DNA of 64,000 nucleotides from Gloeobacterales cyanobacterium (GTDB taxonomy: Bacteria > Cyanobacteriota > Cyanobacteriia > Gloeobacterales > PMM-0068), in the NCBI GenBank assembly GCA_038245785.1, contig JBBRSB010000005.1:97128-161127 (forward strand). Direction: 5' to 3'. Both the position numbers and the translations under genes were made by a program. This document shows positions 7,053-57,164 of the stretch, one piece after another; within the stretch, counting starts at the first letter, position 1; every line of letters starts with the position of its first letter. The notes under the pieces were generated by a model, which had not been told where the DNA came from, did not search any database, and worked only from the letters and a program-made list of their open reading frames with translations.

Positions 7053-7095
7053 AGTTCCAGTAATCTACTGAATATAAAAGTCTGGGAAAGACGCT

Positions 7096-7836: not shown

Positions 7837-7888
7837 CTTTCAAAGTTTTTTGTCGCACATTGCTGGACACAGTTTTCAAGGAGGATGA

Positions 7889-8236
<348 letters not shown>

Positions 8237-8250
8237 GGGCTCAAACTTTG

Positions 8251-8277
8251 GTCCATGGGGTCTTTCCCTATGGGCCT
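8251..8277 (+). terminator. Stem-loop after atpE (transcript-stabilising or attenuating hairpin)
   Basis: GGTCCATGGGG-TCTT-TCCCTATGGGCC imperfect inverted repeat. Confidence 0.45.
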
Positions 8278-8339
8278 GAGACTATCGTTGGCAATTGGTT
8301 GATAGCTGGGATTACCTGGTACTTCGTGGAAATAAAGTA

Positions 8340-8855: not shown

Positions 8856-8864
8856 GAGAATGAG

Positions 8865-9389: not shown

Positions 9390-9402
9390 GAGTAGCGTTC
9401 TT

Positions 9403-27313: not shown

Positions 27314-29224
27314 CTACATGCGCTCCATGGACGGGTTGGCTTGTGCTTGGCCAAAGGAATACAACTTGTGCCCTGTAAAACTCAGGAGGGCTACGCAACC
27401 CGCACTTAGGATACGGGCTGCAGTGGAGTTCCACTGGAAATCATTGGTTAGTACCTGCATTAGACCTAGATTCGCAAGGAAACTATTTAGGGCCACTCCT
27501 GCAAATACTGCATACTGTATCCGCCAGTTGCTCCAATAAACGCCGAACACGAAGCGACGACTCAGCCAGAAGTTGACCGATAGCCCTAAGAAATAACTTA
27601 TACAAAGTGCGGCGACATCCCATACTCCGACTCTAGTTAAACCAGAAAACATCACCACATCAACAACCGTTGCTATTCCACCTGTCATCAGATAGCTAAG
27701 CAGTTGTTCACTAAGCTTTTTACCTGAATCACTGGACTTCTGTGGGCTGAGAGCTTTAGGCGCCGGAGCAGGCGTAGTCACTTCTTCCGGCTTTGCTTCC
27801 TCCTGATATTCACTATCAGAATTGACAGACCAGAGGTCATGTTTGCCAGGAGTGGTTACATTCTCTGCAGCCATGATTCCCATCAGTAAGCTGTGGTCCT
27901 GATTGTTGTATTTGAAAGCTCCATAGCGGCCCACAACCTGTAGATTGTTAAACTCTTGCACATACCCCTGAATACTAGCCAAGGCTTCTTTATATTCCCC
28001 AGCATAGATAGGATAGGTTCGAGGCAGACGTAAGATAAATCCACTGGATACTTTCTCATCATCCAATAGTTTGATTTGCCTTAGGTCTCGCTCAGCTTGC
28101 TTGAGGAACTCATCCTCAGATTTTTGCCAGTCCTCATCAAAATCACACCAATACTCGCAGCACAAAGGGGTTTGGTGCTGATTAGGCAACATGTCCGGAG
28201 ACCAGTTGGCAAAATTGGTGACGCGGCCAAGCTTGACGCTGGGCTCATTGATATATAACCAATTATCGGGAAACAGCTTTCCGCTTTCTACGATCAGATA
28301 AACCAAGACCGTATTGCGAAACTTCAAAGATTTGGCGCTTTCTACGACGGGTTTAGGAGCCTCTGGTGTAAGTTGTTGAACAAGGTGCGTGAGGGGAATC
28401 GAAGAAATAACACCGCCACAATCTACCGTTTCTTCCAAGCCTGTCTGAAGATTTTTCAAGGTTACTTGGGTCGCTTGAGCATTTTCGTGATAAATGCGCA
28501 CCACTTGGGTATTCAAGAGAACAGTCTGGTTATGGCTACGCAGGAAGTCCGCAGTCATTTCGTACAGTTGTCCAGAGCCTAAACGAGGGAACTGAAACTG
28601 GTCGATAAGGCTTTTCACCTTGCCATCATTGCCCAGCAGCGCATTGCGAACTGCTTTCAGAAGCGATAAGCCTTTGATACGTTGAGCCGCCCAATCAGCA
28701 CTAATGTCTGTACAGGGAATACCCCATAGCTTTTGGGTATAGCCTTCAAAAAATATCTCAAAGAGACGCTTGCCAAATCTACCGCTAACCCATTCAGCAA
28801 AGTTTTGAGGGGAACGGTTAGGAAACAACTGAGCCTGTATGTACGACAACACGATACGGGCGCTTTCGACGAAGCCAAGAGAAAACAGGGCTTCAAATGC
28901 TTTCAAGGGATAGCTAAAATACTTATTGCCATAGTAAATACGGGTTAGACGATTTACTGTTACTTGCTCTCGGCCCAACACCTCATCCCAGAAAGCGAGT
29001 ACAGGAGCAAGTTTCGTAAAGAAACGATGGGGGCCGTAATCTAGAATAAAGCCTTGATACTCAATACTTTTGGCAAATCCACCGACCTTAGAATCTTGCT
29101 CAACTACTACAACAGAATGGCCTTGTTTCGTCAGACTGTAAGCAGCTGCTAGCCCTGCAGGCCCACCGCCTAATACATAGATAGGTGCGGCTTGTGTATG
29201 GTAACTAGACATGAAAATGACCAA
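27314..29224 (-). CDS. FAD-dependent oxidoreductase (HemY/UDP-galactopyranose mutase-like) fused to C-terminal GtrA domain
   Basis: GGGPAGLAAA, DYGPHRFF, GRYGAFKYNNQDH; C-terminal 4-TM region YLMTGGIATVVD...NFWLSRRFVF. Confidence 0.8.
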   Translation of the reverse strand: MVIFMSSYHTQAAPIYVLGGGPAGLAAAYSLTKQGHSVVVVEQDSKVGGFAKSIEYQGFILDYGPHRFFTKLAPVLAFWDEVLGREQVTVNRLTRIYYGNKYFSYPLKAFEALFSLGFVESARIVLSYIQAQLFPNRSPQNFAEWVSGRFGKRLFEIFFEGYTQKLWGIPCTDISADWAAQRIKGLSLLKAVRNALLGNDGKVKSLIDQFQFPRLGSGQLYEMTADFLRSHNQTVLLNTQVVRIYHENAQATQVTLKNLQTGLEETVDCGGVISSIPLTHLVQQLTPEAPKPVVESAKSLKFRNTVLVYLIVESGKLFPDNWLYINEPSVKLGRVTNFANWSPDMLPNQHQTPLCCEYWCDFDEDWQKSEDEFLKQAERDLRQIKLLDDEKVSSGFILRLPRTYPIYAGEYKEALASIQGYVQEFNNLQVVGRYGAFKYNNQDHSLLMGIMAAENVTTPGKHDLWSVNSDSEYQEEAKPEEVTTPAPAPKALSPQKSSDSGKKLSEQLLSYLMTGGIATVVDVVMFSGLTRVGVWDVAALCISYFLGLSVNFWLSRRFVFGVYWSNWRIQYAVFAGVALNSFLANLGLMQVLTNDFQWNSTAARILSAGCVALLSFTGHKLYSFGQAQANPSMERM

Positions 29225-41485: not shown

Positions 41486-43522
41486 ATGAAACGATCTGAC
41501 GAAAAAATTCCACTGGTCCTGATTGCAGACGATGACCGAGTGATTCGGCTTGCTTTGAAGCGGGTTATGAAACAGGCTGGTTATCGAGTGGTGGAAGCGG
41601 CGGATGGTCAGCAATGTTTAGCTGAGTATATAAAACATCAGCCAGAGATTGTTTTCCTTGATGCCATGATGCCCGTCATGGATGGATTTGCCACCTGCAA
41701 ATACCTGCGCTCCTTGGCTGGCTCGTCCCCGCTAATTTTCTTAATCACCAGTCTTGAGGATGAAGCCTCCATCGCCCAAGGGTTTGAAGAAGGGGTCGAT
41801 GACTTTATTTTGAAGCCCATCCACTGGAAGCTTCTCCAACGGCGAGTAGGACACTTTTTACAGGCCAAAAGAACCAAGGATGCTCTACATGAGAGTGAAG
41901 CGAGCCTCGCTGGTGCACAGCAGATTGCTCATATCGGTAGCTGGGATCTCAATATAGTGACCAATAAGCTCCAGTGGTCCGCAGAAATCTACCGTATTTT
42001 TGGACTCCTAGAAGGCGAAGTCACCGCTACCTACGATTTATTGATTGAGAAGATTCATGCTGATGACCGTCTATTGGTCAAACAGGCTATGGACAGAGCG
42101 CTGTACGAGCATGAAACATTCAGCATGGACCATCGGATTGTGCGGCCTAATGAAGCCGAGCGTATCGTCCATTCTCGTGCAGAAGTGGTCTACAACAAGG
42201 ATGGCTGGGCTACGCGGATGGTGGGAACCATTCACGATATTACAGAACGCAAACAGGCGGAGAATAAGCTAACCTACTTGGCTCACCATGACCCCCTGAC
42301 CGGACTTTATAACCGAGCATACTTACTCGAAAAGCTGCAGAGGGTTCTAAAAATAAGGAATCGGACAAGGGGAGCCTTACTGTTTGTAGACCTTGATAAC
42401 TTTAAGATTGTCAACGATTCTCTAGGGCACGCTACGGGAGACCGACTCCTCACCACCTTGAGCAGCAAGCTGCAGTATATTCTGCGGGAAGAAGACACCT
42501 TTGCGCGCATCGGGGGAGATGAGTTTGCACTTCTGATGGAAGACACCAATCCCGAAGAAGCTCAGCAAGTGGCCGAAAGACTCTTGCACTTCATCGGAGA
42601 CTTCCGCTATAGCGAAGGCGGCCTTACCTTTGCCATAGGAGGTAGCATCGGTCTCGCTTTCATGGAGCCGGCTTTGGAGGCAGAAGAACTCTTGGCCCGA
42701 GCCGATAGAGCCTGCTATCTATCCAAAGCTCGGGGCCGCAACCGAATTGAGGTCTATCAGCCAGGACAGGATGAACTCCAGTGCGCAGCAGAAGAAGCCA
42801 GCTGGACGACGCGGATTAAAGATGCGCTGAAAGAAAAAGGGTTCAGGCTCTGGTTTCAACCTGTATTTCAGGTAGCAACCCAGCAGATAAACCACTATGA
42901 AGCCCTCCTCCGGATGCAAGGACGGGATGGTCAAGTTGTACCTCCAGGCGCTTTTATCCCTGCTGCTGAGCGTTTTGGCTTGATGAATCAGATAGACTAC
43001 TGGGTAATCCAGGAAGCTGTCCAATACTTAGCAGCACACCCAGAAATACATTTGGCGGTGAATCTATCTGGAAAATCGCTGAGTGATCCAGCCCTCAAAG
43101 ATTTCATCGGTCTGAATTTAGAGCAGCAGAGCGTAGACCCCAAACGGCTCAGTTTTGAAATTACAGAAACGGCCGCGGTAGTGAATCTTGAAAAAGCGCG
43201 CCTGTTCATACATGACATGAAATCACTAGGCTGCAAATTTGCCCTGGATGACTTTGGCGCAGGCTTTTCGTCCTTTACTTATCTGCGGGAGCTACCCGTA
43301 GACCATCTCAAAATCGATGGCAGCTTCATCCGTAATTTAGACCAAGACCCGATCAATCAAGCGCTGGTCCGCTCTATTCATGAAATGGCTAGAGCGCTGG
43401 GTAAGCAGACTATTGCTGAATTTGTAGAAAATGAGGCCATTTTACAGATCCTGCAAGAAATAGGTGTTGATTACGCCCAGGGATATCATCTTGGACGCCC
43501 CAGCCCAAACTGCTTCCTATGA
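41486..43522 (+). CDS. REC-PAS-GGDEF-EAL c-di-GMP enzyme
   Basis: Receiver IADDD...LDAMMP...KP; PAS/PAC ending DITERK; HDPLTGL, DLDNFK, REED-x5-GGDEF; YEALLR, EITE, DDFGAGFSS, LKIDGSF, AEFVE, QGY. Confidence 0.95.
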   Translation: MKRSDEKIPLVLIADDDRVIRLALKRVMKQAGYRVVEAADGQQCLAEYIKHQPEIVFLDAMMPVMDGFATCKYLRSLAGSSPLIFLITSLEDEASIAQGFEEGVDDFILKPIHWKLLQRRVGHFLQAKRTKDALHESEASLAGAQQIAHIGSWDLNIVTNKLQWSAEIYRIFGLLEGEVTATYDLLIEKIHADDRLLVKQAMDRALYEHETFSMDHRIVRPNEAERIVHSRAEVVYNKDGWATRMVGTIHDITERKQAENKLTYLAHHDPLTGLYNRAYLLEKLQRVLKIRNRTRGALLFVDLDNFKIVNDSLGHATGDRLLTTLSSKLQYILREEDTFARIGGDEFALLMEDTNPEEAQQVAERLLHFIGDFRYSEGGLTFAIGGSIGLAFMEPALEAEELLARADRACYLSKARGRNRIEVYQPGQDELQCAAEEASWTTRIKDALKEKGFRLWFQPVFQVATQQINHYEALLRMQGRDGQVVPPGAFIPAAERFGLMNQIDYWVIQEAVQYLAAHPEIHLAVNLSGKSLSDPALKDFIGLNLEQQSVDPKRLSFEITETAAVVNLEKARLFIHDMKSLGCKFALDDFGAGFSSFTYLRELPVDHLKIDGSFIRNLDQDPINQALVRSIHEMARALGKQTIAEFVENEAILQILQEIGVDYAQGYHLGRPSPNCFL

Positions 43523-43616
43523 AGCAAACTTCTTAGAATCTTGATACCAACTTCATGATGCGCAATTTTGTGAGGGAATTTTAATTTTATCAACGGTAGC
43601 AAAAAGGCAATCCGGG

Positions 43617-44480
43617 ATGGCCGAAGTTGCTCCTGTCCCTACACAAAAGTCTGTCACGCTTGGAACGGTACTCACGCGCGAAGGACTGATTACGGTTCGT
43701 CAGCTGGACTATGCCCTAGCAGAACAGCAGGAAGAAGCGGCACAAGCGCAAGGGTTCTTGCTGGGTGAAATTTTTATCCGTTGGGGCCTGCTCACGGAAG
43801 CAGAACTCGTCGATGCGCTGAACCAGCAATACTTCCTCAATGAAGGTCATCGTTTTGGTGAGCAGATCCATCGTTCAGTACACAGTAAATCAAAGCGAAT
43901 CCTAGATGTTGTAATAGCTAGCTTTGGCTTGATTATGGCGTTCCTGCTTGCCCCCTTTATCGCGCTCGCTATTTATCTGGAAGACCGAGGTCCTATCTTG
44001 TTCTCCCAACCTCGGGTCGGCCTAAGAGGCAAACAGTTCACAATTTTCAAATTTCGCTCTATGGTACCTGATGCGGAGCGACAGAAAGCAGCGCTCATGG
44101 GGTCCAACTACAAGTTTTTTAATCTGGAAGCAGACAAACGGGTCACACGGGTAGGCGCTTTCTTGCGCAAAACCCACTTGGATGAATTTCCTCAATTTTG
44201 GAATGTGCTCAAAGGAGAAATGAGTTTGGTGGGCACACGTCCTCCAACCCTGGATGAAGTCAAAAACTATGCCCATGAAGAATGGCAGAGACTGGCTATC
44301 AAACCAGGGGTCACCGGTCTTTGGCAATTGAGTCCAAAACGACGCCGCAGAGACTTTGCCAGCATCTTAGCGCTAGATATGCAATACCAGTCTGAATGGA
44401 GCGTCTGGTATGACATCGGCCTGATCCTCCAGTCCCTAAAGCATGTCTTTTCGCAAGTTTTCAAGAGAGAAGTGAAATGA
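43617..44480 (+). CDS. Priming sugar (phosphoglycosyl) transferase with N-terminal MshEN-like domain
   Basis: KRILD, FKFRSM, RVTRVGAFLRKTHLDEFPQFWNVLKGEMSLVGTRP, KPGVTGLWQ; N-terminal tandem xLGxxL..G(L/I)...L..AL..Q repeats. Confidence 0.9.
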   Translation: MAEVAPVPTQKSVTLGTVLTREGLITVRQLDYALAEQQEEAAQAQGFLLGEIFIRWGLLTEAELVDALNQQYFLNEGHRFGEQIHRSVHSKSKRILDVVIASFGLIMAFLLAPFIALAIYLEDRGPILFSQPRVGLRGKQFTIFKFRSMVPDAERQKAALMGSNYKFFNLEADKRVTRVGAFLRKTHLDEFPQFWNVLKGEMSLVGTRPPTLDEVKNYAHEEWQRLAIKPGVTGLWQLSPKRRRRDFASILALDMQYQSEWSVWYDIGLILQSLKHVFSQVFKREVK

Positions 44481-44926
44481 AGATACTGCTCGTTTGCTCC
44501 TCAGGTGGCCATTTCGCAGGCATGATGCGCCTCAAAAAGTTTTGGGGACGGCATGAACGTACATGGGTAACGTTCCGTAATCCCAGTACAGAAGGTGATT
44601 TACAGGGAGAAAAAGTTTGGTGGGCTTTTAGTCCTACCAATCGAAACCTCATCAACTTAGTACGCAATTTTTTCTTGGCGATCTTTGTGCTCTTAAAAGA
44701 AAGACCTAACCTCGTAGTCACTACAGGCGCGGGTGTAGCCGTACCTTTTCTATTCTTAGCGCGCCTCTTGGGAGCGAAGGCAGCTTTTGTCGAGTCAATT
44801 ACTCGGGTTAAATCTTTAAGCCTTTCGGCACGTTTGGTTTCTCCCTTCGCTGAAGTCTACGTGCAATGGCCAGAACTCCATCAGAACTACCCCAGAACGA
44901 TCTATGCGGAGGCAACCAATCCATGA
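44477..44926 (+). CDS. PssD/Cps14F (Alg14-like) glycosyltransferase subunit
   Basis: LVCSSGGH, VTTGAGVAVP, FVESITR...SLSARL, VQWPE. Confidence 0.9.
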   Translation: MKILLVCSSGGHFAGMMRLKKFWGRHERTWVTFRNPSTEGDLQGEKVWWAFSPTNRNLINLVRNFFLAIFVLLKERPNLVVTTGAGVAVPFLFLARLLGAKAAFVESITRVKSLSLSARLVSPFAEVYVQWPELHQNYPRTIYAEATNP

Positions 44927-45609: not shown

Positions 45610-45936
45610 CTAAAATTAGCCGATTCTACGGGAGTAAATCTATCTTCAAACAATTGTTATGCAGGTGGACCCCTCTATTTCGTCGTGCTGCAGGAGTAAT
45701 TTCCAAGGTTTATAAGGGCAGTTTATAGAGCCTTAGCAAGATCACAATATTTTTGGCAAATTCTAGCAAGACAATAGAAAGAATAACTATTATTTTAGAG
45801 TGAAGAGCTGCACGAATAATATAAAGACTCATATGAGTCTCAACTTGATGTTTGTAACATTCGCCTAAATAGCAGGGAGGTGAAAGAGGTAAATTCTGGA
45901 TATCACATCGAAGTATTCTTCTTTAAGAGCACTCCA

Positions 45937-46272
45937 ATGATAATAATTACCTGTAAAATGCAGGCAGCTTTTACGATCAAAACTTCTGACCCAAGTCCTC
46001 ATGAATATATTTCGCATATCGGTGGATATGGATGGTTGTTTTCCCAGGCACAAGCCGTAAACGCTATTTTCAATCAGCAATATTACTTCTATAGATATAT
46101 AAACGGCAGGGCACTAGATATTATCATTGGAAGTAAAGATGGGAACCCATACCTTAAAACAGAAACAGATAGTGAACAGCCAGAGCAGCTTCTAGCTCTT
46201 CCTGATTTTGATGAGCAAGGTACATTACTTGCCTTGAGACAAAATAAGAGAAAGTTTAGTAGCCTAAAATAG
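45937..46272 (+). CDS. DUF3892-like protein
   Basis: ITC...PHEYISHIGG..W..SQ..AV..I...FY...G...II....GNPYLKT..D...PEQLLALP. Start uncertain (45880 or 45937). Confidence 0.7.
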   Translation: MIIITCKMQAAFTIKTSDPSPHEYISHIGGYGWLFSQAQAVNAIFNQQYYFYRYINGRALDIIIGSKDGNPYLKTETDSEQPEQLLALPDFDEQGTLLALRQNKRKFSSLK

Positions 46273-46385
46273 AATGCTTGCAAGATCAAGAGTTTAACCG
46301 TTTAGCCTAGCCTACTTTAGCATTCATTCAAAAGTCTAGCTTAAAGCATTTACTGTTCTTCTCTCTTCACAAAGGTTCCGAAAAT

Positions 46386-47045
46386 ATGAATAGTGTTTCT
46401 CTGTCTAGTTTAAAAAAGTCTCTTGATATTGGCTCTCGTATTGCTCAAGTGCGCTTTCCTCTGCCCCAAGGCAAATTCGCAAACTCTCTCGGAATTCACA
46501 AAAACACTTTAATTCGGTATGAAAAGGGAGAGCGACTACCTGATTCAGCACTACTTTTACGCATCTGTGAACAGTACGATGTTGAGCCAGGCTGGTTACT
46601 TACAGGCAACCTAAGAAATCTCCTAGCAGGAGAAAATATAGCGACCTTAGATGAATACATACCCATTCCTTTACACTCCACTTCCTTAAACAAATCAGGA
46701 GTAGAAGAACCTATTGCCATCAAGAAAAGCTGGATGTTCAAACAACTCCAAGCCAAACCAGGAGACCTGAGTTTTTTCTGTGAAGAGGGCGAAAGCATGA
46801 AGCCCACCCTTTATCCAGGGGATATTGTTCTGGTGGATCTCCATGAAGCAGCGATACGAGATGGGCTCTATGTGCTGCAAATTGAAGATGTCATACTTAT
46901 TAAACGGCTGCAGCGTCTTTCAGGAGACCTTATTAAGGTCAGCAGTGACAATCCAGAATATGAGTCGTGGACAGCCAGCATTCATAATCTCAACCAAACC
47001 TTGAAGATCATCGGCAAAGTAGTCCGTATTTGTCAGAGACTTTAG
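46386..47045 (+). CDS. XRE-HTH / S24 peptidase (CI/LexA-like) repressor
   Basis: HTH QGKFANSLGIHKNTLIRYEKGER...WLLTG; GESMKPTLYPGD (Ser), IKRLQ (Lys), SDNPEY, IIGKVV. Confidence 0.88.
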   Translation: MNSVSLSSLKKSLDIGSRIAQVRFPLPQGKFANSLGIHKNTLIRYEKGERLPDSALLLRICEQYDVEPGWLLTGNLRNLLAGENIATLDEYIPIPLHSTSLNKSGVEEPIAIKKSWMFKQLQAKPGDLSFFCEEGESMKPTLYPGDIVLVDLHEAAIRDGLYVLQIEDVILIKRLQRLSGDLIKVSSDNPEYESWTASIHNLNQTLKIIGKVVRICQRL

Positions 47046-47287: not shown

Positions 47288-48217
47288 GTGAAAGCTTATT
47301 TATTGGCTGCGGGTAAAGGCTCACGCCTGCAGCCCCTGACTAATCTATTACCCAAGCCCTTGGTCCCTTTTTTGAATCACCCATTGGTGAGCTATCAGCA
47401 CTATAACTTGCTCGCCCATGTCGAGCAGGTGCGCTTCAATCTGAGCTACTTAGCTGAGCCGCTGATCCGCTATATAGAGACTACACCCCGAACTAGCTAC
47501 TCTGTGGAAGAGCAACCCTTGGGTTCTGCCCGGACAGTGTGGGCAGAGCGAGCCTATTTCGACCAAACCACCCTGGTCGCCTGTGCCGATATCGCCGCTA
47601 ATTATGATGTTGCACAGTTGCTCAAAAGACATCGCGAAACCGGAGCCAAAGTCACGATTGGGACGGTCATGGTCAGCGATCCTCGCTCTTATGGAGTGAT
47701 CGTCAGCGATGAAAAAGACCGTATCCAAGAGTTCCAAGAAAAGCCTGAGTGTCCTCTCTCCAACATGATTAGCAGCGGAATATACCTTATAGAACCCGAT
47801 GTTTTAAACCATTGGGACCCTGCCTGGGTGGACTTGGGCTCAGATGCTTTTCCTGCTTTGGTGGCTGCAGAAATTCCTGTCTATGCTTATCCCCTAGAGT
47901 GTTCTTGGCAGGATGTAGGGAAGCTTGAGGACTATCTATTGATCCAATTGCAGCGTATTGGTACAGGAAATCTCATTCATCCCACGGCCCAGGTACACCC
48001 TAGTGCCGTTCTGAAAAGGACTATTGTCGGAGCAGATGCCGTAATCGGCGCTGGGGTCCAGCTCACGAACTGCATCGTCTGGCCTGATACCTGTGTCGAA
48101 GCAGATACAAAAATGGTCATGTCCATTGTGACGCCCACGGCTACGGTGTCCCTAGATCGCCGCAAGCGAGTTGAACCTGCTTTGGTAGAGCGTCGTAAGC
48201 GGTTAGTGCAGGCATAG
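47288..48217 (+). CDS. Sugar-phosphate nucleotidyltransferase (mannose-1-P guanylyltransferase-like)
   Basis: LAAGKGSRLQPLT..LPKPLVP, EQPLGSA, FQEKP, WQDVG, short beta-helix tail. Confidence 0.88.
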   Translation: MKAYLLAAGKGSRLQPLTNLLPKPLVPFLNHPLVSYQHYNLLAHVEQVRFNLSYLAEPLIRYIETTPRTSYSVEEQPLGSARTVWAERAYFDQTTLVACADIAANYDVAQLLKRHRETGAKVTIGTVMVSDPRSYGVIVSDEKDRIQEFQEKPECPLSNMISSGIYLIEPDVLNHWDPAWVDLGSDAFPALVAAEIPVYAYPLECSWQDVGKLEDYLLIQLQRIGTGNLIHPTAQVHPSAVLKRTIVGADAVIGAGVQLTNCIVWPDTCVEADTKMVMSIVTPTATVSLDRRKRVEPALVERRKRLVQA

Positions 48218-48513: not shown

Positions 48514-49572
48514 ATGTTTATGTTCCTCCGGCTGATTCCTCTGCCGCTGCTCGTACTGTTTTTTCTGGCCTTGCCGAGTCACGCTCTGCCATTTTCCATC
48601 GGAGATCGTCTTCAAATCACAATTCCGGAAGGGAAAGAATTTAGTGGCAGCTATGTGGTGGATCAACAGGGAAACCTAGAAATTCCCTATCTGGGCAATT
48701 TTCCGGTGAGCGGCCTAGAACTGGAAGAAGCAACCCAGCAATTAACCCAGGCCTTTGTCCAGAAGGGCCTCTTTCGCCGGGACTTCATCAAGGTAAATAT
48801 CCAAGTACTAGCTTGGGCTCCGGTTGAGGTAAATGTCCAGGGAGCGGTCTTTCAGACGGGCAAAACCGTTATCAATTCCCGCCCTGATGTCAGTGACGGG
48901 AAACAAAATAATATTCCGCCCGGTGATGCTGCTCTAAAACGTCATCTCAGCGAAGCGATCCAATCGGTTGGAGGAGTCACTCCAAATGCCGATTTGACCC
49001 AAGTCCGCTTGATTCGTAATCGTTCAGAACAGACTTTTGATCTAACGGGTGCTTTAACTGGAGAACCCTTTCAAGACCCTCCCTTAATTGCGGGAGATAC
49101 GATTATTGTTCCAAAGACCAAACTGTTCCAAGCGCATTTAGTTCGGCCATCCTCGATCACACCACCCGGTATTAAGGTCTTTATCTCCAACCTGACAACT
49201 CCAGCCAATAGCAACTCTAGTGCTGGAGTCGGTTCACAATCAGGCGGAATATCCATGGCCTATGGCTCGCGTTTTTCTCAAGCTGTGGTTGCAGGCAATT
49301 GTGCGGGAGGAACACGAGGCATTAATGCAGAACGTTCTGCCATCCTCATTCAAACAGACCAGCTTACAGGGAAGACTAAGACCTTAGATAGACCAGTAGA
49401 GACAATTCTGCACAAATCTAACGATGAAGACAACCCTCTATTGATGCCCAATGATGGTGTTGCCTGCTACGACTCGAGTACGACAGAGGCGCGTGATCTA
49501 TTCCGAACCTTGGCCGATGTGCTCAATCCCTTTACCCTCCTCTTCGGCAATGGATTATTTAACAAAAGATAG
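48514..49572 (+). CDS. Polysaccharide export protein (Wza/OPX with SLBB domains)
   Basis: Signal peptide, SIGDRLQI, G.LEIPYLG..V.G, VNVQGAV, GGVTPNADL..V, GDTIIVP. Confidence 0.88.
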   Translation: MFMFLRLIPLPLLVLFFLALPSHALPFSIGDRLQITIPEGKEFSGSYVVDQQGNLEIPYLGNFPVSGLELEEATQQLTQAFVQKGLFRRDFIKVNIQVLAWAPVEVNVQGAVFQTGKTVINSRPDVSDGKQNNIPPGDAALKRHLSEAIQSVGGVTPNADLTQVRLIRNRSEQTFDLTGALTGEPFQDPPLIAGDTIIVPKTKLFQAHLVRPSSITPPGIKVFISNLTTPANSNSSAGVGSQSGGISMAYGSRFSQAVVAGNCAGGTRGINAERSAILIQTDQLTGKTKTLDRPVETILHKSNDEDNPLLMPNDGVACYDSSTTEARDLFRTLADVLNPFTLLFGNGLFNKR

Positions 49573-50955
49573 ATGACAACCCTAGCGCCTAATGTCTTAA
49601 CAAAGCTCCCCCTCGAACCTAGACGATGGGGTCGCTATGCCGTGGTATCTATGGGGGCTAATTTTTTTATCTGGGCTGCTGCTTTAGGCTATCTAAAAGT
49701 TGCTCCCATTGTTTATACCTGTGAATGGTCGCTGATCCTGCCTGGTGCCGGAGCAGGCTCGAACCTCAACTTGGAAAACATCGGATCTGTTGCTTCCTCC
49801 GTCTCTTCTCCTTTTGGCGGGAATTCTTCGGTAGACCCTAAAGCCAACTACAAAGCAATTGCTGAAAGTTTCACTGTTCGTGCTGCCGCTGCTAAAAAAC
49901 TCAAACTCACTGCTGAGGAATTCGGCGAAGCAAAAATCAAATCTGTGGACCAAACTTCGGTCTTGCAGTTTACGATCACCGGCTCAAGCGGGAAAATGGC
50001 CCAGCAAAAAGCGATAGCACTTAATGAAGCCTTAGCAGAGCGCATCGAGCAGCTCAGACTGGATGAACTGGTGCGCCGTGAGAATGGCTTTAAAAGAGCG
50101 ATAGCAGAAGGTCGAAAGAAGTTAGAACAAGCCCAAAGAGCCCTCTTAATCTATAAAACGAAGACAGGCATTACTTCGAGCAACCAAGCCCAGGATTTAT
50201 CCACGCTTGTCGATGCTTTGCGCAAAGAACAAGTCCAGGTTCTATCCCAACGCAATCGCGCAAGCCGCCGCCAACAACAATTGGTCCAGAATCTAAAGAT
50301 CACGCCGCAAGAAGCGGTGGATGCATTCACCTTACAGGTGGACCCACTGTTTCTACAAAGCATGAAAGACTACAACGAAGCCGAATCGTCGCTGACTATC
50401 TACCGCTCTAAGTGGGGTGACAATCATCCCGAAGTGATTAAAGAAGTAGCCCGGCGAAGAGTCGCCCAAGAGGCCCTAATCAGGCAAACTCAGACGCTCC
50501 TCGGAAGGAAAATAGATGAGAAAAACCTACAAAGACTGAATGCAGGAAGCAGCAATCGGGCCAGTCTGATGCAAGATTTGGTGACTTCCAAAGCTGATGA
50601 AGAAGGATTGACAGGACAGAGCAAAGAACTTACCGATCAACTGTCTAAGTTCAAAAAGGAGCTGTCCACGCTATCTCGCCAGCAAGCCACGCTAGAGAGT
50701 TTACAGCGAGATTTACAGATTGCAGAAGCCGTATTTAGCTCTACTTTAGGCAAGATTGATGTGGGTAAAACAGATATCTTTGCTTCCTATCCGCTTGTTC
50801 AGACCTTAATTGAACCTGGGCTGCCCGAGGTTCCCAGTGCGCCCAAAAAGTCTTTTGTTCTGTTGGGAGCAGCCGTAGCCTCGCTTCTTACAACCGCAGG
50901 GCTTATTTTGCTATGGCTCCGTCAGAAGAGGAAAAATGAAACCACAAAACTTTGA
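49573..50955 (+). CDS. GumC/Wzc-type chain-length regulator (no kinase domain)
   Basis: N- and C-terminal TM helices, long coiled coil, KWGDNHPEV, P.LP..PSAPKK. Confidence 0.82.
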   Translation: MTTLAPNVLTKLPLEPRRWGRYAVVSMGANFFIWAAALGYLKVAPIVYTCEWSLILPGAGAGSNLNLENIGSVASSVSSPFGGNSSVDPKANYKAIAESFTVRAAAAKKLKLTAEEFGEAKIKSVDQTSVLQFTITGSSGKMAQQKAIALNEALAERIEQLRLDELVRRENGFKRAIAEGRKKLEQAQRALLIYKTKTGITSSNQAQDLSTLVDALRKEQVQVLSQRNRASRRQQQLVQNLKITPQEAVDAFTLQVDPLFLQSMKDYNEAESSLTIYRSKWGDNHPEVIKEVARRRVAQEALIRQTQTLLGRKIDEKNLQRLNAGSSNRASLMQDLVTSKADEEGLTGQSKELTDQLSKFKKELSTLSRQQATLESLQRDLQIAEAVFSSTLGKIDVGKTDIFASYPLVQTLIEPGLPEVPSAPKKSFVLLGAAVASLLTTAGLILLWLRQKRKNETTKL

Positions 50956-52273
50956 AGAAAAGGTGGTTTGGTATTCAATTATCGGAACCTATGGGTTCTA
51001 TCTCATCGGGGCTCTTTATATTCTGGCTCCAGCCATCGCCTGGATTTTAACAGGCTACTTATTTTGGAAGCTGTATAAACAAGACGACAGCACTCCCTTA
51101 GATGAACGGGTGAGACTGCCCCTAGGCGTTTGGGTCTGGATCGGGGCCATGATCTTCATGGAAGTGGCTTTGCTAGCTGCCCATCTGGATTTTTCTTTAG
51201 GTACAGATTCCGCGATTAAGTCTTCCATCGGCTGGGCCAAAGGCTGGGCGCTCCTTGCCCTCTTCCCTCTGATTGGCTGTTTAAACATCCGTCCTCAGTT
51301 GATCTATCGAGCCGCTTGTATGGTCTGTCTACAAACCCTGCTTCTATTCCCCTTTTTCTACTTGGGTTATCTCCTGCATCTACCTTCACAGCTCTACATT
51401 TCTCCTCTGCAGGCGGTAGGAGGACCAGGGCCAGAATTTTTCAGTTTTCAACTGTATGGCATTGACCCAGAAAATGGGCAACCTCGTTGGCAACTCTTTA
51501 CGCCTTGGGGACCAGCCCTTGGATTTGTTGCCAATATCTATTTCTTCTGTGCACTCCAAGAAGAAGAAACCAAGTGGCGCTGGATTGGCCTGATCGGTTG
51601 CGTGGTCATGTGCCTCGTATCTGCTTCTCGTATGGCCTTGCTGACTACCGCAGAAGTTTTTGCCTTCGCTTGGTTGATCACCAACTTTACTCGACCTGGG
51701 GTATTACTGACTTTGGGCCCTACCGCTCTGTTAGGCGGTATCCTAGCCCCAAAGATTATAGAGACCATTGAAGACCTTACCGAAGCTTTTAAAGGGGCGC
51801 GGGCAGGATCATCTCGCGTAAGGTCTACCTTAGGACGTATTGCGGTCCAACGCTGGGAGAGCGAAGCTCCAATCTGGGGGCATGGGATTGTAGAAAGAGG
51901 ACCCCACCTGGTGGAATATATGCCCATCGGCTCCCACCACAGCTGGTTCGGCCTACTTTTTGTCAAAGGGATTGTAGGGTTTTCGGCCCTGGCTGTAGCC
52001 TTGTTTTATAGCTTCCTTGACTTGTCTTTCAAAGCCCAAAAAGATGTCCATGCCAAAGTCGGATTGTGCATGATGCTCGTCATCTTTACCTACACCTTTG
52101 GCGAAAACCTCGAGATTCTGGCCTATCTCTACTGGCCGGGCCTGATCATGATCGGAATCGGATTTAAAAGCACAGCCTGGGAACAGATGTCGAATCATAT
52201 TTCACCTCCAGAAGACTCTACAGACGTTGCCAGTCAGACCTGCGTCACCTCTAGGGCAGGAGAAGTTATTTGA
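50936..52273 (+). CDS. Wzy/O-antigen ligase family polymerase
   Basis: About 10-12 TM helices, SASRMA, PIWGHG, GSHHSWFGLLFVKGIVG. Confidence 0.82.
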   Translation: MKPQNFEEKVVWYSIIGTYGFYLIGALYILAPAIAWILTGYLFWKLYKQDDSTPLDERVRLPLGVWVWIGAMIFMEVALLAAHLDFSLGTDSAIKSSIGWAKGWALLALFPLIGCLNIRPQLIYRAACMVCLQTLLLFPFFYLGYLLHLPSQLYISPLQAVGGPGPEFFSFQLYGIDPENGQPRWQLFTPWGPALGFVANIYFFCALQEEETKWRWIGLIGCVVMCLVSASRMALLTTAEVFAFAWLITNFTRPGVLLTLGPTALLGGILAPKIIETIEDLTEAFKGARAGSSRVRSTLGRIAVQRWESEAPIWGHGIVERGPHLVEYMPIGSHHSWFGLLFVKGIVGFSALAVALFYSFLDLSFKAQKDVHAKVGLCMMLVIFTYTFGENLEILAYLYWPGLIMIGIGFKSTAWEQMSNHISPPEDSTDVASQTCVTSRAGEVI

Positions 52274-53118
52274 TGACAGGATCTAATCTTTCATGGAAAA
52301 CACTGCGGCAATGGCGACAGGCATGGAGCTTATTCACTTGGCATACTATTTCTAGGTTCAAAACAATTCGGGTACGTGCCTGGCTCGACCGGATTGTCCA
52401 GAAAGGGTACTGCGAATTTGTGGTGAACGCGAAACGGGCGCTGATCTTTGCGCCCCACCAAGATGATGAAACGCTTGGCTGTGGCGGGCTGATTGCGCTC
52501 AAATCTAGACTGAATGTGCCCATCGAAGTTATTTTTCTTACCGATGGTAGTCAGTCCCACGGCAGCCGATCTAATAAGTCCAACACTACTCAAGCTCATC
52601 TATTGCATGTCCTAAAGCGCAATCAAGAGGCTGAGGCGGCCCTTGCCATCCTTGGAGTCTCACCCGCCCAGACCCACTTTCTTGACTTTGAGGATGGTGG
52701 CCTCACCTATCTCAGTGGCAAACAACGCCGAAATGCTGTCGAACGGCTAGCCAAACTTGTGCAGGACTTTGCTCCGGAGGAGGTGTACGTACCCCACCGT
52801 CAGGACCGCCACCCTGACCATGAAGCTACCTATGCTTTGGCGATCGAGGCCCTTCAGCTGGCTGGGTTAGCTACGCAAGTTACTGTCTGGCAATATCCGA
52901 TTTGGCATTTTTGGGATGCACCCCCCGGATTCACGCTGCAACGACCGGAGCTAAGCGGACTCTATAGGCTATCCATCGCTACGGTTCGCGAACAGAAACA
53001 GCGGGCTATCGCGGTCTATACCAGCCAGACGGGTGCGGGCCAGCCAGGCGTACTGCCACCAGGGCTTCTTGAACAGTTCATCGGTGGTTTTGAACTCTTC
53101 TTTCAAAAGAGGGGTTGA
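52270..53118 (+). CDS. PIG-L/LmbE family N-deacetylase
   Basis: APHQDDETLGCGG, LTDG, D.HPDH, YTSQ. Confidence 0.9.
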   Translation: MMTGSNLSWKTLRQWRQAWSLFTWHTISRFKTIRVRAWLDRIVQKGYCEFVVNAKRALIFAPHQDDETLGCGGLIALKSRLNVPIEVIFLTDGSQSHGSRSNKSNTTQAHLLHVLKRNQEAEAALAILGVSPAQTHFLDFEDGGLTYLSGKQRRNAVERLAKLVQDFAPEEVYVPHRQDRHPDHEATYALAIEALQLAGLATQVTVWQYPIWHFWDAPPGFTLQRPELSGLYRLSIATVREQKQRAIAVYTSQTGAGQPGVLPPGLLEQFIGGFELFFQKRG

Positions 53119-53122
53119 AGCC

Positions 53123-54151
53123 ATGAGGCATCTCCACCACAAACTGAGCGCTCTCCATGTGGTTACTGACTATAAATCGGGTGGAATACGTTTTAATGTC
53201 GAGGACATAGTTAGTTCTCGGCTGGCCCAAATCTTCGATTTCTCGGTGGTCCTGCTTGATGAGGCCCCCTATGTGCTAGAAGTACAGCCAGATCTGGTGC
53301 TCTTTCACTCTGCCTGCTCGTGGGCCAATATTCCAAAGCTGCTGTCATTAAAGCAACTGGGACCGGTGATTATTCAAGAGAATCACTACAATGAGGATTT
53401 TGACCAGCTCACGCCTAGCCTTGAACGTTTTCATATGATGCTACGCATCATGTATGGTCTGGCAGACCATGTCGTAGCTATTTCTGAGAATCAGGGCGAG
53501 TGGATGCTCCGTAATCAGCTTGTCAAACCGCACAAACTAACCGTTATCCCAGCCGCGAAAAATCTGGACGCTTTCCTGACTATTCCAGAGCCATCTCTCC
53601 TCTGGCCTTTGGTACTAGGAGCCTACGGCCGTTTCAGCCCGGAGAAGGGATTTGATGTCTTCCTGGAAGCACTCAGATACATCAATCTGCCTATAGGAGT
53701 CTTACTGGGAGGAGAGGGCCTTGAAGGAGACCGCCTCGCATCCATGGCTCAGGGGTTGGAGAACTTTAAATTTGTGGGTCTAGTGCACGACGTACCCGAA
53801 TTTCTAAAGCAGTGTGACATTGTGGTCTTACCTTCTCGGCGTGAAACCTGGGGATTTACCTGTATGGAAGCGAAGGCGGCGGCCCGACCTGTGGTGGCAA
53901 GCAAGGTCGGCGGCCTCAGTGAACAAGTGGTGGGCTGTGGTCTCCTGATAGCACCGGACAATCCCCGTGATTTGGCCGAGTCTATCCGCTTCCTTTGCAG
54001 CCAGGACCGGGAAATGCTTCAGTCGTTAGGTCGAGCAGGCAGACAGTCAGTGCAGGGAGCCTGGGAGCATTATCTAGAACAGTGGGATGATCTGATGCAT
54101 AGGGTTATAGGCAGTAAAAGGCCGCATAGAAGACGCCCTCAACAAACCTAA
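53123..54151 (+). CDS. GT4 glycosyltransferase
   Basis: GRFSPEKGFD, PSRRETWG...EAKAAARPVVAS.VGG. Start ATG 53123. Confidence 0.88.
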   Translation: MRHLHHKLSALHVVTDYKSGGIRFNVEDIVSSRLAQIFDFSVVLLDEAPYVLEVQPDLVLFHSACSWANIPKLLSLKQLGPVIIQENHYNEDFDQLTPSLERFHMMLRIMYGLADHVVAISENQGEWMLRNQLVKPHKLTVIPAAKNLDAFLTIPEPSLLWPLVLGAYGRFSPEKGFDVFLEALRYINLPIGVLLGGEGLEGDRLASMAQGLENFKFVGLVHDVPEFLKQCDIVVLPSRRETWGFTCMEAKAAARPVVASKVGGLSEQVVGCGLLIAPDNPRDLAESIRFLCSQDREMLQSLGRAGRQSVQGAWEHYLEQWDDLMHRVIGSKRPHRRRPQQT

Positions 54152-54367
54152 GATTAGGATAATTCAACCAAACAGCAGATCCTTACTCCAGTTCTAGCAA
54201 GGATTTCAGCACTTATCGCAAAGTGAGTTCGGTCTACAATAGATAGTGGACCTTGAAGTTGCAAATTAGGTATGAATACTACAGATAATTCCCCAATAGA
54301 AGATATGGAGTCGACGGTTACGGTATCTGTTGAAGTGGGCCTGAGTGTCCGTGGAACGGCCAATCAG

Positions 54368-54655
54368 ATGAGTTCGCCTTCACGCTACGTTATCCGCAAC
54401 TCCGAAATTTTGGGCGGAGAGCCAATTATTACAGGCACTCGTACATCCGTTCGCGCCATCGTCAGTCTGTGGCGATTGGGCATTATGCCAGAAGAGATCT
54501 TAAATCATCTGCCCCATCTGACGCTGGCACAGGTATTTGATGCCTTAAGTTTCTATCAGGATGAGCAAGCAGAGATTAATAATTACATTGAACGAAATCA
54601 AGTGCCCGATGAATTGGTGCACTCATCTGTGAAGTCAGCACTTGGTAAACCGTGA
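54368..54655 (+). CDS. DUF433 family (antitoxin-like) protein
   Basis: ILGGEPIITGTRTSVRAI, PEEIL..LPHLTLAQVFDALSFY. Start uncertain (54272-54368). Confidence 0.85.
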   Translation: MSSPSRYVIRNSEILGGEPIITGTRTSVRAIVSLWRLGIMPEEILNHLPHLTLAQVFDALSFYQDEQAEINNYIERNQVPDELVHSSVKSALGKP

Positions 54656-54685
54656 CAATTGCTTGTAAATCCTGTTCAAAAAGTT

Positions 54686-55705
54686 TCACGGCAAAGAATC
54701 CTGAACAATGCGCCTGCGTTGGAACATGCCACTTATTCTGGTAGCCACCGTATTCACTTGATGGAAGAAGGTGTTGGGTAACAGGCGTAGGAGATAGGCT
54801 GCAATCAAGGTGAGTAGCGTCCGTCTCGGTTCCTTAAAAAGGATGAGAGGATGAGCGGTGATCGCTTGATGAGTTAGAGAAACAGCTAAATCACGAAGCT
54901 GTAGACGGATGGCCGTACGGGCCAAATATAAAAGTTGATAGGTGCGGGCTATCGATTCCCATTGCGCAATCAGTTCAGGAGCATAGCTTCGGGTTTTTTC
55001 GATAACTGCTTCCCAGGAAGCAAGTTGTTGGAGTAAGCTCGCTGAGAGACCTCCAGTATTAACTCGATATAAAGTTAGCGGTTCAGGAATTCCTTCAATC
55101 AACCAAGGCGTTTGGATAGCAATGCGCAACCAGCATTCAATATCTTCAGCGCGACGCAAAGACTCATCAAAGTAGCAAGTTTCGCCCGCCGCATTCTTTC
55201 GGCCAATCAACTTGAAAACTTCCCGTCGCACTACCGGAGCTGAACCATTGCCAACAGGATTACAACAAAGCAGATAGTCCGCCGTGATGCCTGTGAGTTT
55301 GGGCATTTGATAAGTATTGAGGTCTTTCCCTGCTTCATCAATAAAGGCTGAACGGCTGAAACTAAGGCCGACCTTCGATGAGTTATCTAAATGGGCAACA
55401 TGCATTTCCAGTTTTTTAGGTGCCCACAGGTCATCTCCGTCGAGAAAAGCGAGATAGACTCCTTGGGCATGGCGAATCCCGGTATCACGGGCTCCGGACA
55501 ATCCTCTATTGCTCTGTTGAATAATCTGAATTCTGGGGTCTGTGAATTGCTGACAGATTTCTATACTGCGGTCCGGGGAGCCGTCATCAATGATTAACAG
55601 TTCAAAATTGCCATAGGTTTGTGCCAAAACAGAGCGTACGGCCTCGGCAACATATTGCTCAACGCCATACACGGGCAAAATGACAGAAACTTTCTTCTTT
55701 TCCAT
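54686..55705 (-). CDS. GT2 glycosyltransferase
   Basis: SVILPVY, IDDGSPD, NRGLSGAR, FLDGDD, EDIECWLR. Confidence 0.92.
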   Translation of the reverse strand: MEKKKVSVILPVYGVEQYVAEAVRSVLAQTYGNFELLIIDDGSPDRSIEICQQFTDPRIQIIQQSNRGLSGARDTGIRHAQGVYLAFLDGDDLWAPKKLEMHVAHLDNSSKVGLSFSRSAFIDEAGKDLNTYQMPKLTGITADYLLCCNPVGNGSAPVVRREVFKLIGRKNAAGETCYFDESLRRAEDIECWLRIAIQTPWLIEGIPEPLTLYRVNTGGLSASLLQQLASWEAVIEKTRSYAPELIAQWESIARTYQLLYLARTAIRLQLRDLAVSLTHQAITAHPLILFKEPRRTLLTLIAAYLLRLLPNTFFHQVNTVATRISGMFQRRRIVQDSLP

Positions 55706-55717
55706 CGCTTGAACTCC

Positions 55718-56986
55718 TTAGACCTGCGGTAATGGCAATCGAGTAAAGACATGGCGGGTGCCCCAGAGACTGAACAGGGGCAATAAAATGGTATGGGTTG
55801 CCAGTACGGCGATAGCCACTCCAAGACTTTGTCCTTGGACACCGATCAGCAAGCTCAGCGCAAAGATTGCGGTGAATAGAAGATTCCAGCGCAGGTCTAT
55901 GTTTGCTTTACCCACAGATAGGAGTAACTGCGAAGTAGCATCGGCAAAGGGACGAGGAATTGCCGAAAGACAAATTAGGATCAGAACTGGAATAGCCGTA
56001 ACCCATTTCTGTCCAAAAACAATCGGCACATAGAAGGGGGCCAAACTTGATTGCAAAAGGACCAAAGGAATAATCGCGAAGGCAATCGTCTTCAAACTGG
56101 TTCGATACCGTTGCCATAGCTGGGACAGATCGGAACGAACGGCACAAAGATGAGGGAGCAACGCTACGTTGATTGAGCTGATCACGCCCAAACTAATTCC
56201 TAAGCCCGCATTAAAAGCGAAATAGTAGATTCCAAGCTCTTGCAACCCCAAAAAACGGCCAATAATCAGATAGTCCATATTGTTGCGGAGCGTCTTGAGC
56301 AACTCTATGCCCAAGATATTGCGACTGAAATCTAGTAATGCTCCCCAGTGTTCTGTAATAAATTTCCCCTTGGGCCGCCAAGGGTGATTTTTGGAAATGA
56401 CATAGACCCAGATCGGAACCACCAGCACTTTAGGCAACACAATCGCCCACATCCCTAGACCTGCGAAGGCTAGGGCTAGGGACAGCAGGTTATCTACTGT
56501 AATCTGAAGCGTATTGCTTAGGGCAATCACCTTGATTCTGTTTTCTCGCTGGATCAGGGCTGATTGCACTTCAGCAAGAGGGATGAGCAAAAAGTTTGTT
56601 GCCATCAGGCAAATAGGCAAAATAATTTGGTTGTCATGATAGAACCAAGCAATCGGAAAAGCCGATAAACACTGCAAGATAAATAAACCGATAAATACTA
56701 GCCATCCCAGCCAATAGGCTGATTGAGCTAATTGTTCAATATCTTTTTCTTCAGCCTGAATTAGTTTTGCTCCAATTCCATTGCGACTGAAAACTTGGAT
56801 AAACTCGTTAGTGGTTAAAACAATGGCGGCCAAGCCAAAATCATAGGGGCTCAAGAAACGGGCTAGAGCAACAGTCGTGATCAGTCTAAATATGCGGATG
56901 ATCGCTCCTGAAGCTCCCATCCAACCAACATTGCGCACAAAAGGATTATTAAACCTATCGAATCTATCTTTGAGTTGAGCAAGCAT
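55718..56986 (-). CDS. Wzx-type flippase
   Basis: LARFLSPYDFG, MDYLIIGRFLG..ELGIYYFA, VFGQKW..A; about 12 TM helices. Confidence 0.88.
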   Translation of the reverse strand: MLAQLKDRFDRFNNPFVRNVGWMGASGAIIRIFRLITTVALARFLSPYDFGLAAIVLTTNEFIQVFSRNGIGAKLIQAEEKDIEQLAQSAYWLGWLVFIGLFILQCLSAFPIAWFYHDNQIILPICLMATNFLLIPLAEVQSALIQRENRIKVIALSNTLQITVDNLLSLALAFAGLGMWAIVLPKVLVVPIWVYVISKNHPWRPKGKFITEHWGALLDFSRNILGIELLKTLRNNMDYLIIGRFLGLQELGIYYFAFNAGLGISLGVISSINVALLPHLCAVRSDLSQLWQRYRTSLKTIAFAIIPLVLLQSSLAPFYVPIVFGQKWVTAIPVLILICLSAIPRPFADATSQLLLSVGKANIDLRWNLLFTAIFALSLLIGVQGQSLGVAIAVLATHTILLPLFSLWGTRHVFTRLPLPQV

Positions 56987-57164
56987 GATGTTGAGAATTG
57001 CCCCTCAAGGATTTGAGTCTAAGGTAGAGCTTAAGCCCAAAACTTTATAAGCCTATGCCAGGTTTAGTATTCCGCATCAGACTGAATTCATAACAGTTGT
57101 CAATAGGTTATTTATCAGTATATTAGGGAACACTTTGTTACACAGACTTAGGTGTGATTAAGCT

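Follow-up and report, generated by a model that had tools for sequence, protein, structure and literature searches.

The window analysed here is a stretch of 64,000 nucleotides from a Gloeobacterales cyanobacterium (GenBank assembly GCA_038245785.1, contig JBBRSB010000005.1, positions 97,128 to 161,127 of the forward strand). Two neighbouring genes in it, at the head of a polysaccharide gene cluster, are the subject of this work. One encodes a REC-PAS-GGDEF-EAL protein predicted to make and degrade the biofilm signal cyclic di-GMP (c-di-GMP). The other encodes a small phosphoglycosyl transferase (PGT), a priming enzyme, with an MshEN-type domain fused to its N-terminus. Their features are as follows, with amino acids (aa) counted within each protein.

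41486-43522, + strand: REC-PAS-GGDEF-EAL protein of 678 aa, predicted bifunctional diguanylate cyclase/phosphodiesterase (Pfam domains, intact motifs)
41516-41845, + strand: receiver domain (PF00072, Response_reg, aa 11-120), phospho-acceptor D59 with T88 and K110
41969-42232, + strand: PAS_3 domain (PF08447, aa 162-249, by Pfam)
42281-42745, + strand: GGDEF domain (PF00990, aa 266-420), GGDEF motif at aa 343-347, RxxD I-site R334-D337 at nt 42485-42496
42812-43501, + strand: EAL domain (PF00563, aa 443-672), all 10 catalytic/substrate residues on our list kept, as is loop 6 (DDFGAGFSS)
43617-44480, + strand: MshEN-PGT fusion, small monotopic phosphoglycosyl (priming) transferase of 287 aa (Pfam, NCBIfam, PDB profile search, AlphaFold2/Foldseek)
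43656-43829, + strand: MshEN_N four-helix domain with a predicted c-di-GMP site, two 24-aa motifs (aa 14-37 and 48-71) and a 10-aa linker (NF053729, Foldseek, conservation)
43893-44450, + strand: PGT catalytic domain (PF02397, aa 93-278), one hydrophobic (re-entrant-type) segment at 98-116, matches to PglC and WbaP

The two open reading frames (ORFs) are co-oriented, with a gap of 94 bp (43522 to 43617). An earlier note, made from the sequence alone, had described a co-oriented gene with intact GGDEF, RxxD and EAL motifs at this distance upstream of the PGT gene, and ORF positions, Pfam and a motif scan agree with it. A promoter/terminator scan placed no terminator-like site between the two genes; it returned 7 promoter-like sites against 9.9 expected and 13 terminator-like sites against 8.3 expected, and yielded nothing usable. 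A phage or mobile origin of the pair was rejected because its GC content (47-52%) resembles that of the genome (47.8%).

The N-terminus of the PGT consists of two 24-aa motifs, TLGTVLTREGLITVRQLDYALAEQ (residues 14-37) and LLGEIFIRWGLLTEAELVDALNQQ (residues 48-71), exactly where the earlier note had seen two repeats joined by 10 residues. LG, two Leu and Gln are present in both (L15, G16, L30, L34, Q37 and L49, G50, L64, L68, Q71). The proposed likeness to MshEN was borne out by a hidden Markov model (HMM) search: the NCBIfam family NF053729 (c-di-GMP_motif, MshE-related) matches residues 15-71 with 40.3 bits (cut-off 38, E 2e-10). It also matches, at E<=1e-4, 49/49 members of our alignment, which comprises the window PGT and 48 homologues. 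From the top 50 hits, P0025 (N-terminus missing) and P0036 (474 aa) were left out of this alignment, as were the 70 hits P0051-P0120, which cover mainly the catalytic domain. The NfrB model NF012033 weakly matches residues 10-74. Pfam returned only Bac_transf (93-278) and no PF05157 match on the PGT, so there is no MshEN_C subdomain. The idea that the repeat arose by chance was rejected on the NF053729 score and on two controls. A tandem-motif pattern, composed after the motif had been seen, matched one of the 36,849 six-frame ORFs of the genome, namely the window PGT. The N-terminal 92 aa scored 78.6 bits, against at most 11.9 bits in 1000 shuffles (977 reported), a control that is partly circular since its HMM was seeded from the query's own hits.

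Structure prediction, proposed earlier as a check, gave a match to the MshEN fold. The AlphaFold2 model built from the 49-row alignment has a mean predicted local distance difference test score (pLDDT) of 86.3 and a predicted template modelling score of 0.78, with four helices in the N-terminus (15-21, 27-42, 49-55 and 61-80). Foldseek superimposed this part on MshE bound to c-di-GMP (5HTL_B) with a root-mean-square deviation (rmsd) of 1.1 Å over 59 columns, and on PilF GSPII-B (9GLG) with an rmsd of 1.3 Å over 63 columns, each with probability 1.00. A PDB profile search with the PGT found the same two groups as Foldseek, PglC/WbaP and MshE/PilF GSPII-B. The ESM Atlas gave only Bac_transf clusters, at 0.90, and a homodimer prediction with c-di-GMP scored 0.02 and was not used. 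Residues 14-71 of the PGT are confirmed as an MshEN-type domain.

The contact positions that PMC5013675 names for such domains are well kept. In 15 homologues below 70% identity, G16, L30 and Q37 are present in 15/15 and L34, L49 and G50 in 14/15; L64 and L68 are always L/I/V, and Q71 is kept in 10/15. The first motif position is Thr14 in motif 1 and Leu48 in motif 2, and replacement of the leading Arg was the caveat of the earlier note. Across the 49 rows this position is Arg in 8 for motif 1; for motif 2 it is Leu in 42 and Arg in 1. PMC11731258 extends the motif to (R/K/L)LG. PilF GSPII-B, which has K167 and L196 in place of Arg, binds c-di-GMP with a dissociation constant (KD) of 6 nM, its K167L variant with 2 nM, and restoring Arg lowers the affinity (PMC11731258). 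A natural MshEN_N variant with R1M/R30K binds at 2.6 µM (PMC5013675, supplement). Leu48 fits the extended consensus and would be favourable for c-di-GMP binding, so the caveat is answered for motif 2; Thr14 does not fit and stays a real uncertainty. Judged from PilF GSPII-B, the missing Arg is a weak objection to binding, and a micromolar affinity would be the safest guess.

Alternatively, the domain could be a degenerate MshEN that has lost c-di-GMP binding and acts as a module for structure or interaction, with some other reason for the presence of EAL genes in the cluster. The rarity of Arg at both first positions speaks for this, as does the fact that non-binding MshEN/GSPII domains are common (PMC5013675, PMC12002112). 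In PilF GSPII-A an N-cap can block the pocket (PMC12002112), and T9 of the PGT is placed like the blocking N-cap Thr. However, T9 lacks an acidic/Gln N3 partner (S12 is found there), the first helix of the model begins at residue 15, and the domain keeps both Gly, both Gln and the Leu triads, at which substitution prevents binding in XpsE and PilF GSPII-A. We regard a non-binding domain as distinctly unlikely.

The catalytic half of the PGT resembles that of known small enzymes. K145, R184, D189-E190, R208 and D266 each occur in 49/49 rows. They make up the catalytic set of an Asp-Glu dyad, Lys, two Arg and a helix-stabilising Asp, mapped to PglC numbering by motif spacing; the PglC counterparts are K59, R88, D93, E94, R111 and D168 (PMC12802240). 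There is a single hydrophobic segment and no four-helix membrane bundle, which indicates the small monotopic type. Foldseek matched the core to PglC (E 6e-13) and also to WbaP. D97 (49/49) and P113 (48/49) form DX15P instead of DX12P, which we read as a subfamily variant common across the alignment; it would lower strict motif membership, not the fold match. The catalytic residues are intact and catalysis is predicted.

The upstream enzyme also looks intact. Twenty-seven positions, which we take from established knowledge to be its signalling residues, were inspected, and 27/27 are present. They include D15, D16, D59, T88 and K110 in REC, the I-site R334-x-x-D337, the GGDEF motif at 343-347, and E472, R476, N526, E558, E561, D588, D589, K609, E645 and Q665 in EAL. 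With the REC, GGDEF A-site, I-site and EAL residues all in place, the protein is predicted to be a bifunctional response regulator. The intact REC domain by itself suggests the hypothesis that the enzyme is under phosphorelay control. A structure prediction of the enzyme from a 4-row alignment reached pLDDT 40 and was discarded.

The genome of the window (G000, 98% complete) has hardly any other c-di-GMP genes: EAL is matched by the upstream gene alone, GGDEF has 3 matches with this gene among them, and NF053729 is matched above cut-off by the PGT alone. In the congener G001 (94% complete), the REC-PAS-GGDEF-EAL orthologue is the only full-length GGDEF match and the only EAL match, and it lies directly before the PGT gene; this gene order is repeated in two metagenome loci. 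An active HD-GYP protein as a second phosphodiesterase was rejected, as the single HD_5 match (L190) has HR, not HD, and no GYP. It is conceivable that c-di-GMP acts on the cluster at another level, through transcription or another receptor, and that MshEN on the PGT is secondary. Relatives do have other receptors that would suit such an arrangement: ComFB in 2/5 genomes tested (G012, G013), and proteins other than the PGT with full MshEN motifs in G011, G012 and G013. It is opposed by G000 and G001, in which neither PilZ nor ComFB gave a match (the search covered three receptor families), and by PilB, whose motif matches only half of NF053729 and stays below cut-off. We consider it highly improbable.

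Within the order, the fusion is distributed together with EAL genes. It occurs in 5/14 genomes, the same 5 that have the Wzy-like gene of the cluster. EAL occurs in 7/14, including all 5 carriers, and the fusion in 0/7 genomes without EAL; the two-sided Fisher p of 0.02 is overstated because kin genomes are not independent. In 4/5 fusion genomes an EAL gene lies in or beside the cluster: upstream of the PGT gene in G000 and G001, and as a stand-alone EAL gene directly before wza in G008 (L033:11560-12462) and G013 (L196:8338-9354). In the stand-alone proteins loop 6 is degenerate and the C-terminal tail hydrophobic; they may or may not share an origin with the EAL domain of the window (support 0.19). 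Conservation of the REC-PAS-GGDEF-EAL neighbour across the family was rejected; the neighbour is genus-level. A scan of 3/64 parts of a contig collection found one fusion among 80 loci.

Two side observations concern these genes. At L209:2420-3490 (G000:C24) a partial GGDEF is followed by a C-terminal receiver domain, and most genomes of the order with GGDEF, three of them without EAL, have partial GGDEF matches in frames of similar size. G012 carries two paralogues of the fusion (L034, L035), of which one is oriented divergently to pssD-wza-wzc-wzy and the other to pssE. Their arrangement suggests a duplicated and split cluster head.

A third member of the genus, G002 (97% complete), provides a comparison. 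It has no match to the fusion, the Wzy-like gene or pssD, and it is closer to G001 than G000 is (dS, the synonymous divergence, 0.44 vs 1.26). Its orthologue of the upstream enzyme (L191:495-2531, - strand) has an intact ORF and is 74% identical, and an unrelated convergent ORF fragment lies downstream. It carries D16N, D59N, R334Q, R341H, E346K, R476Y, E561Q and E645K. These are 8/27 key residues among 54/526 changed positions, where about 2.8 would be expected under even decay (p=0.0035); the key-residue list was fixed after the alignment had been viewed and G002 is a single draft assembly, which counts against building on this figure. Key changes number 0 among 103 changes on the window branch and 0 among 25 on the G001 branch. 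The ratio of nonsynonymous to synonymous divergence against G001 is 0.17 overall, and the replaced residues span all three signalling domains. Such a pattern has the look of targeted inactivation, or of a protein kept as a scaffold, rather than of plain decay; it is also what would be expected if the job of the upstream enzyme was to serve this cluster. The confinement of the fusion to EAL-encoding genomes among the 14 of the order, and the decay of the enzyme where the cluster is missing, also argue against a degenerate MshEN.

We think it probable, from the sequences, the structural model and analogy with known systems, that the MshEN domain gates the priming step by binding c-di-GMP, and that the adjacent bifunctional enzyme sets the c-di-GMP level under receiver control. 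Since the priming enzyme has a predicted c-di-GMP domain and adjoins the only EAL gene found in the genome, the first step of polysaccharide synthesis is where the signal probably acts as a switch. A kinase would phosphorylate D59 and thereby shift the cyclase/phosphodiesterase balance. A single c-di-GMP molecule would then lie between the paired LG...LxxxLxxQ motifs, and Leu48 would take the stacking place that Arg has in MshE. The fourth helix, which bears L64, L68 and Q71 and runs unbroken to residue 80 just before the membrane helix, may relay the change to the catalytic core. By analogy with NfrB, binding most likely activates, about twice as probably as it inhibits; if so, polysaccharide would be made when c-di-GMP is high. 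The overall proposal of the earlier note, a c-di-GMP switch at the first step, is supported by the MshEN fold and family, the intact PGT residues, the position of the PGT at the head of a Wzx/Wzy-type cluster, and the linkage to c-di-GMP enzymes in Gloeobacterales loci.

The domain might also bind c-di-GMP without gating catalysis in its own chain, and instead bring the PGT to a partner or place (PssD/PssE, the co-polymerase, the cyclase, a cell pole) or alter its stability. There are precedents for action through a partner: the PGT EpsZ of M. xanthus is activated by phosphorylated EpsW (PMC12802240), and NfrB directly contacts the cyclase DgcJ (PMC8669469). In addition, the region of the 10-aa linker is conserved (E40 39/49, A41 46/49, W56 45/49), which suggests an interaction surface. 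In the AlphaFold2 model, however, the domain is about 20 residues from the membrane helix and connected to it by a continuous helix, a geometry that suits direct coupling. We judge recruitment without gating to be rather unlikely.

Several observations weigh against c-di-GMP gating of the PGT by its MshEN domain. The Foldseek E-values of the MshEN match are weak (0.04-0.09), because the query was the full-length PGT model. The linker between the motifs is 10 aa, not 5, and Q71 is replaced by Leu or Glu in 5/15 divergent homologues. Besides the doubt over Thr14, Ser at the first position of a motif abolished binding in a weakened PilF GSPII-A construct, and a good consensus can still fail to bind (PMC12002112). 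There is no histidine kinase among the 52 window proteins scanned with Pfam, and genome-wide kinase pairing was not attempted. The co-occurrence with EAL is counted among kin, and the whole cluster can move as one unit. In G012, with its two fusions, no EAL gene was found in the whole 41 kb of contig C86 or in the 10 kb examined of the 11.9-kb contig C44. GGDEF/EAL neighbours are absent from 19-kb stretches at 6/6 distant loci encoding an MshEN-PGT-WecG protein, so the fusion is more widespread than its linkage to c-di-GMP genes. The linkage that the earlier note had proposed to survey thus holds in 4/5 fusion genomes of the order and at none of these six loci.

The nearest named homologues of the window PGT are from Gloeobacter kilaueensis (P0023), a cultured species, and Gloeobacterales, which by itself makes this order the probable one for the genome. 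On trees of the catalytic domain only, MshEN-PGTs form one clade (FastTree 0.988; quick IQ-TREE, 97 in the SH-like approximate likelihood ratio test), which in the FastTree version holds 57 MshEN rows and P0025; this record has no N-terminus, and its catalytic domain is identical to that of L003. Its sister is a clade of small PGTs of crown cyanobacteria, with joint support of 0.88 (FastTree) and 82 (quick IQ-TREE). The sister clade includes STAS-Bac_transf proteins, in which STAS occupies the same N-terminal slot. The MshEN-PGT-WecG proteins belong to the clade of the window protein. A C-terminal extension occurs in MshEN-PGTs of 11/81 genomes of another cyanobacterial order (L231-L241, L038; frames of about 550-590 aa), and it is WecG by Pfam in 4/4 loci tested and in P0036. 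A second, apparently independent gain of MshEN was observed inside the crown clade (P0050, P0061 and L193:1858-2967 of G278), with one or two degenerate copies, nested among short PGTs. In a sample of 401 genomes of the phylum (6 candidates scored per genome; 96 matches unlisted), only G278 rose above core-only matches among the matches listed. No close match to the divergent homologue P0040 was found in that sample; a region search returned only P0040.

A broader idea can be put forward tentatively, as a possibility that we would not yet bet on. In this genus the c-di-GMP system, as far as it can be detected, might in essence be a switch of two genes, a phosphorylation-controlled cyclase/phosphodiesterase and a receptor that is the PGT itself. 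Beyond the genus, the N-terminal slot of cyanobacterial small PGTs might be swappable (MshEN in the deep-branching clade and again independently in a crown lineage, STAS in the sister clade), and direct c-di-GMP gating of undecaprenyl-phosphate commitment might then be a general, undescribed means of controlling Wzx/Wzy polysaccharides.

Parts of the system have known relatives. Vibrio cholerae MshE MshEN_N (5HTL; PMC5013675) and PilF GSPII-B of Thermus thermophilus (8PDK/9GLG; PMC11731258) share with the window PGT the tandem 24-aa motifs, the four-helix fold, LG, the central G and LxxxLxxQ, and L196 of PilF is a Leu at motif-2 position 1 as here. In MshE and PilF the domain is on an ATPase, whereas here it is on a PGT, lacks MshEN_C, has Thr at motif-1 position 1 and has the 10-aa linker. 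E. coli NfrB (GT2-MshEN; KD for c-di-GMP 1.0 µM) likewise carries MshEN on a polysaccharide biosynthetic enzyme, and its relatives often have a linked GGDEF gene (PMC8669469). The two differ in that MshEN is C-terminal in NfrB, a processive synthase, whereas the window protein has MshEN_N at its N-terminus and is a monotopic priming PGT of a Wzx/Wzy-type pathway. Pfam found no processive GT2 synthase domain in the PGT, which therefore does not belong with NfrB and the synthase-type c-di-GMP effectors, although its mode of action may be similar to that of NfrB. Anabaena All4160 and Synechocystis XssP (STAS-Bac_transf; bioRxiv 10.64898/2026.04.08.717354) are small cyanobacterial PGTs whose N-terminal slot likewise contains a regulatory domain. 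STAS phosphorylation in All4160 is reported to inhibit function (same preprint); the input there is inhibitory Ser phosphorylation, whereas the predicted input here is a second messenger. All4160 is outside our tree and is linked to it through tree proteins of the same Pfam architecture. In Myxococcus xanthus EpsZ-EpsW, a Wzx/Wzy pathway is controlled post-translationally at the initiating PGT, as proposed here, but EpsZ is a large dimeric monotopic PGT activated in trans by a phosphorylated response regulator, with no c-di-GMP (PMC12802240). Campylobacter PglC (8E37), a small monotopic PGT, shares the catalytic core, the Asp-Glu dyad and the Lys/Arg residues; it has no regulatory domain, and the kinking Pro of the window PGT lies 16 residues after D97, not at DX12P.

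The components are known, and their combination in an MshEN-PGT is apparently unpublished. The architecture is absent from Supplementary Table 4 of PMC5013675, and by a term search PMC11626204 mentions neither c-di-GMP nor MshE nor STAS. In titles and abstract openings of the literature on MshEN with glycosyltransferases or Bac_transf, and on PGTs, no paper on the fusion was found, in line with the earlier note, which knew of no characterised example; a 2021 network paper on monotopic PGTs may list such fusions. The present instance adds a minimal circuit and a natural loss control (G002). Post-translational control of Wzx/Wzy pathways is incompletely understood (PMC12802240), in contrast to synthase pathways, for which c-di-GMP allostery is well known. 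If the reading is true, a c-di-GMP receptor on a PGT would let a second messenger directly switch the step at which a limited lipid carrier is committed, and c-di-GMP would gain a concrete output among the earliest-branching cyanobacteria. Tests of this should be unusually easy, since the small protein has just 287 aa and one membrane segment, c-di-GMP genes are very few and a cultured carrier, Gloeobacter kilaueensis, exists.

The genes downstream of the PGT gene are as follows.

44477-44926, + strand: PssD/Cps14F (Alg14-like) glycosyltransferase half (NF041549 above cut-off), overlapping the PGT stop codon
44923-45441, + strand: PssE/Cps14G-like (GT28 C-terminal) glycosyltransferase half (PF04101; NF041548 below cut-off)
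47288-48217, + strand: sugar-1-phosphate nucleotidyltransferase (PF00483)
48514-49572, + strand: Wza/OPX polysaccharide export protein (PF02563, SLBB)
49573-50955, + strand: likely polysaccharide co-polymerase (chain-length determinant), from weak GNVR, TIGR01005 and TIGR03017 matches below cut-off
50936-52273, + strand: likely Wzy polymerase, a multi-pass membrane protein (ESM Atlas look-alikes)
52270-59407, mixed strands: rest of the cluster, with PIG-L deacetylase, GT4, GT2 (- strand), Wzx flippase, GT4 and GT2 (Pfam)
55718-56986, - strand: the Wzx flippase of this stretch (Pfam)

A PGT, glycosyltransferases, a Wzx flippase and an OPX export protein are all present by Pfam, and the cluster is predicted to encode a Wzx/Wzy-type pathway with the PGT at its head. 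This agrees with the Wzy-dependent polysaccharide of the earlier note as far as these four components go; the Wzy and the co-polymerase lack a curated match above cut-off. The likely Wzy matched nothing in Pfam, NCBIfam or PDB and was assigned only from look-alikes in the ESM Atlas, which score 1.00 and of whose members 19-41% carry Wzy_C. No kinase domain was detected in the likely co-polymerase. The cluster is interrupted at 45880-47045 by a DUF3892 gene and an HTH-peptidase S24 (phage-repressor-like) gene with a GC content of 41-43%; both genes are missing from the corresponding position in G001, L197 and L198.

Elsewhere in the window, ATP synthase F0 genes and delta are followed by miaA rather than alpha/gamma (6567-9948). 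A 932-aa protein with at least 4 GAF domains has no output domain by Pfam (19044-21842). GtrA is fused to an amine-oxidase-like flavoprotein at 27314-29224, and to GT2 at 62786-63970, beside a PMT_2 membrane glycosyltransferase.

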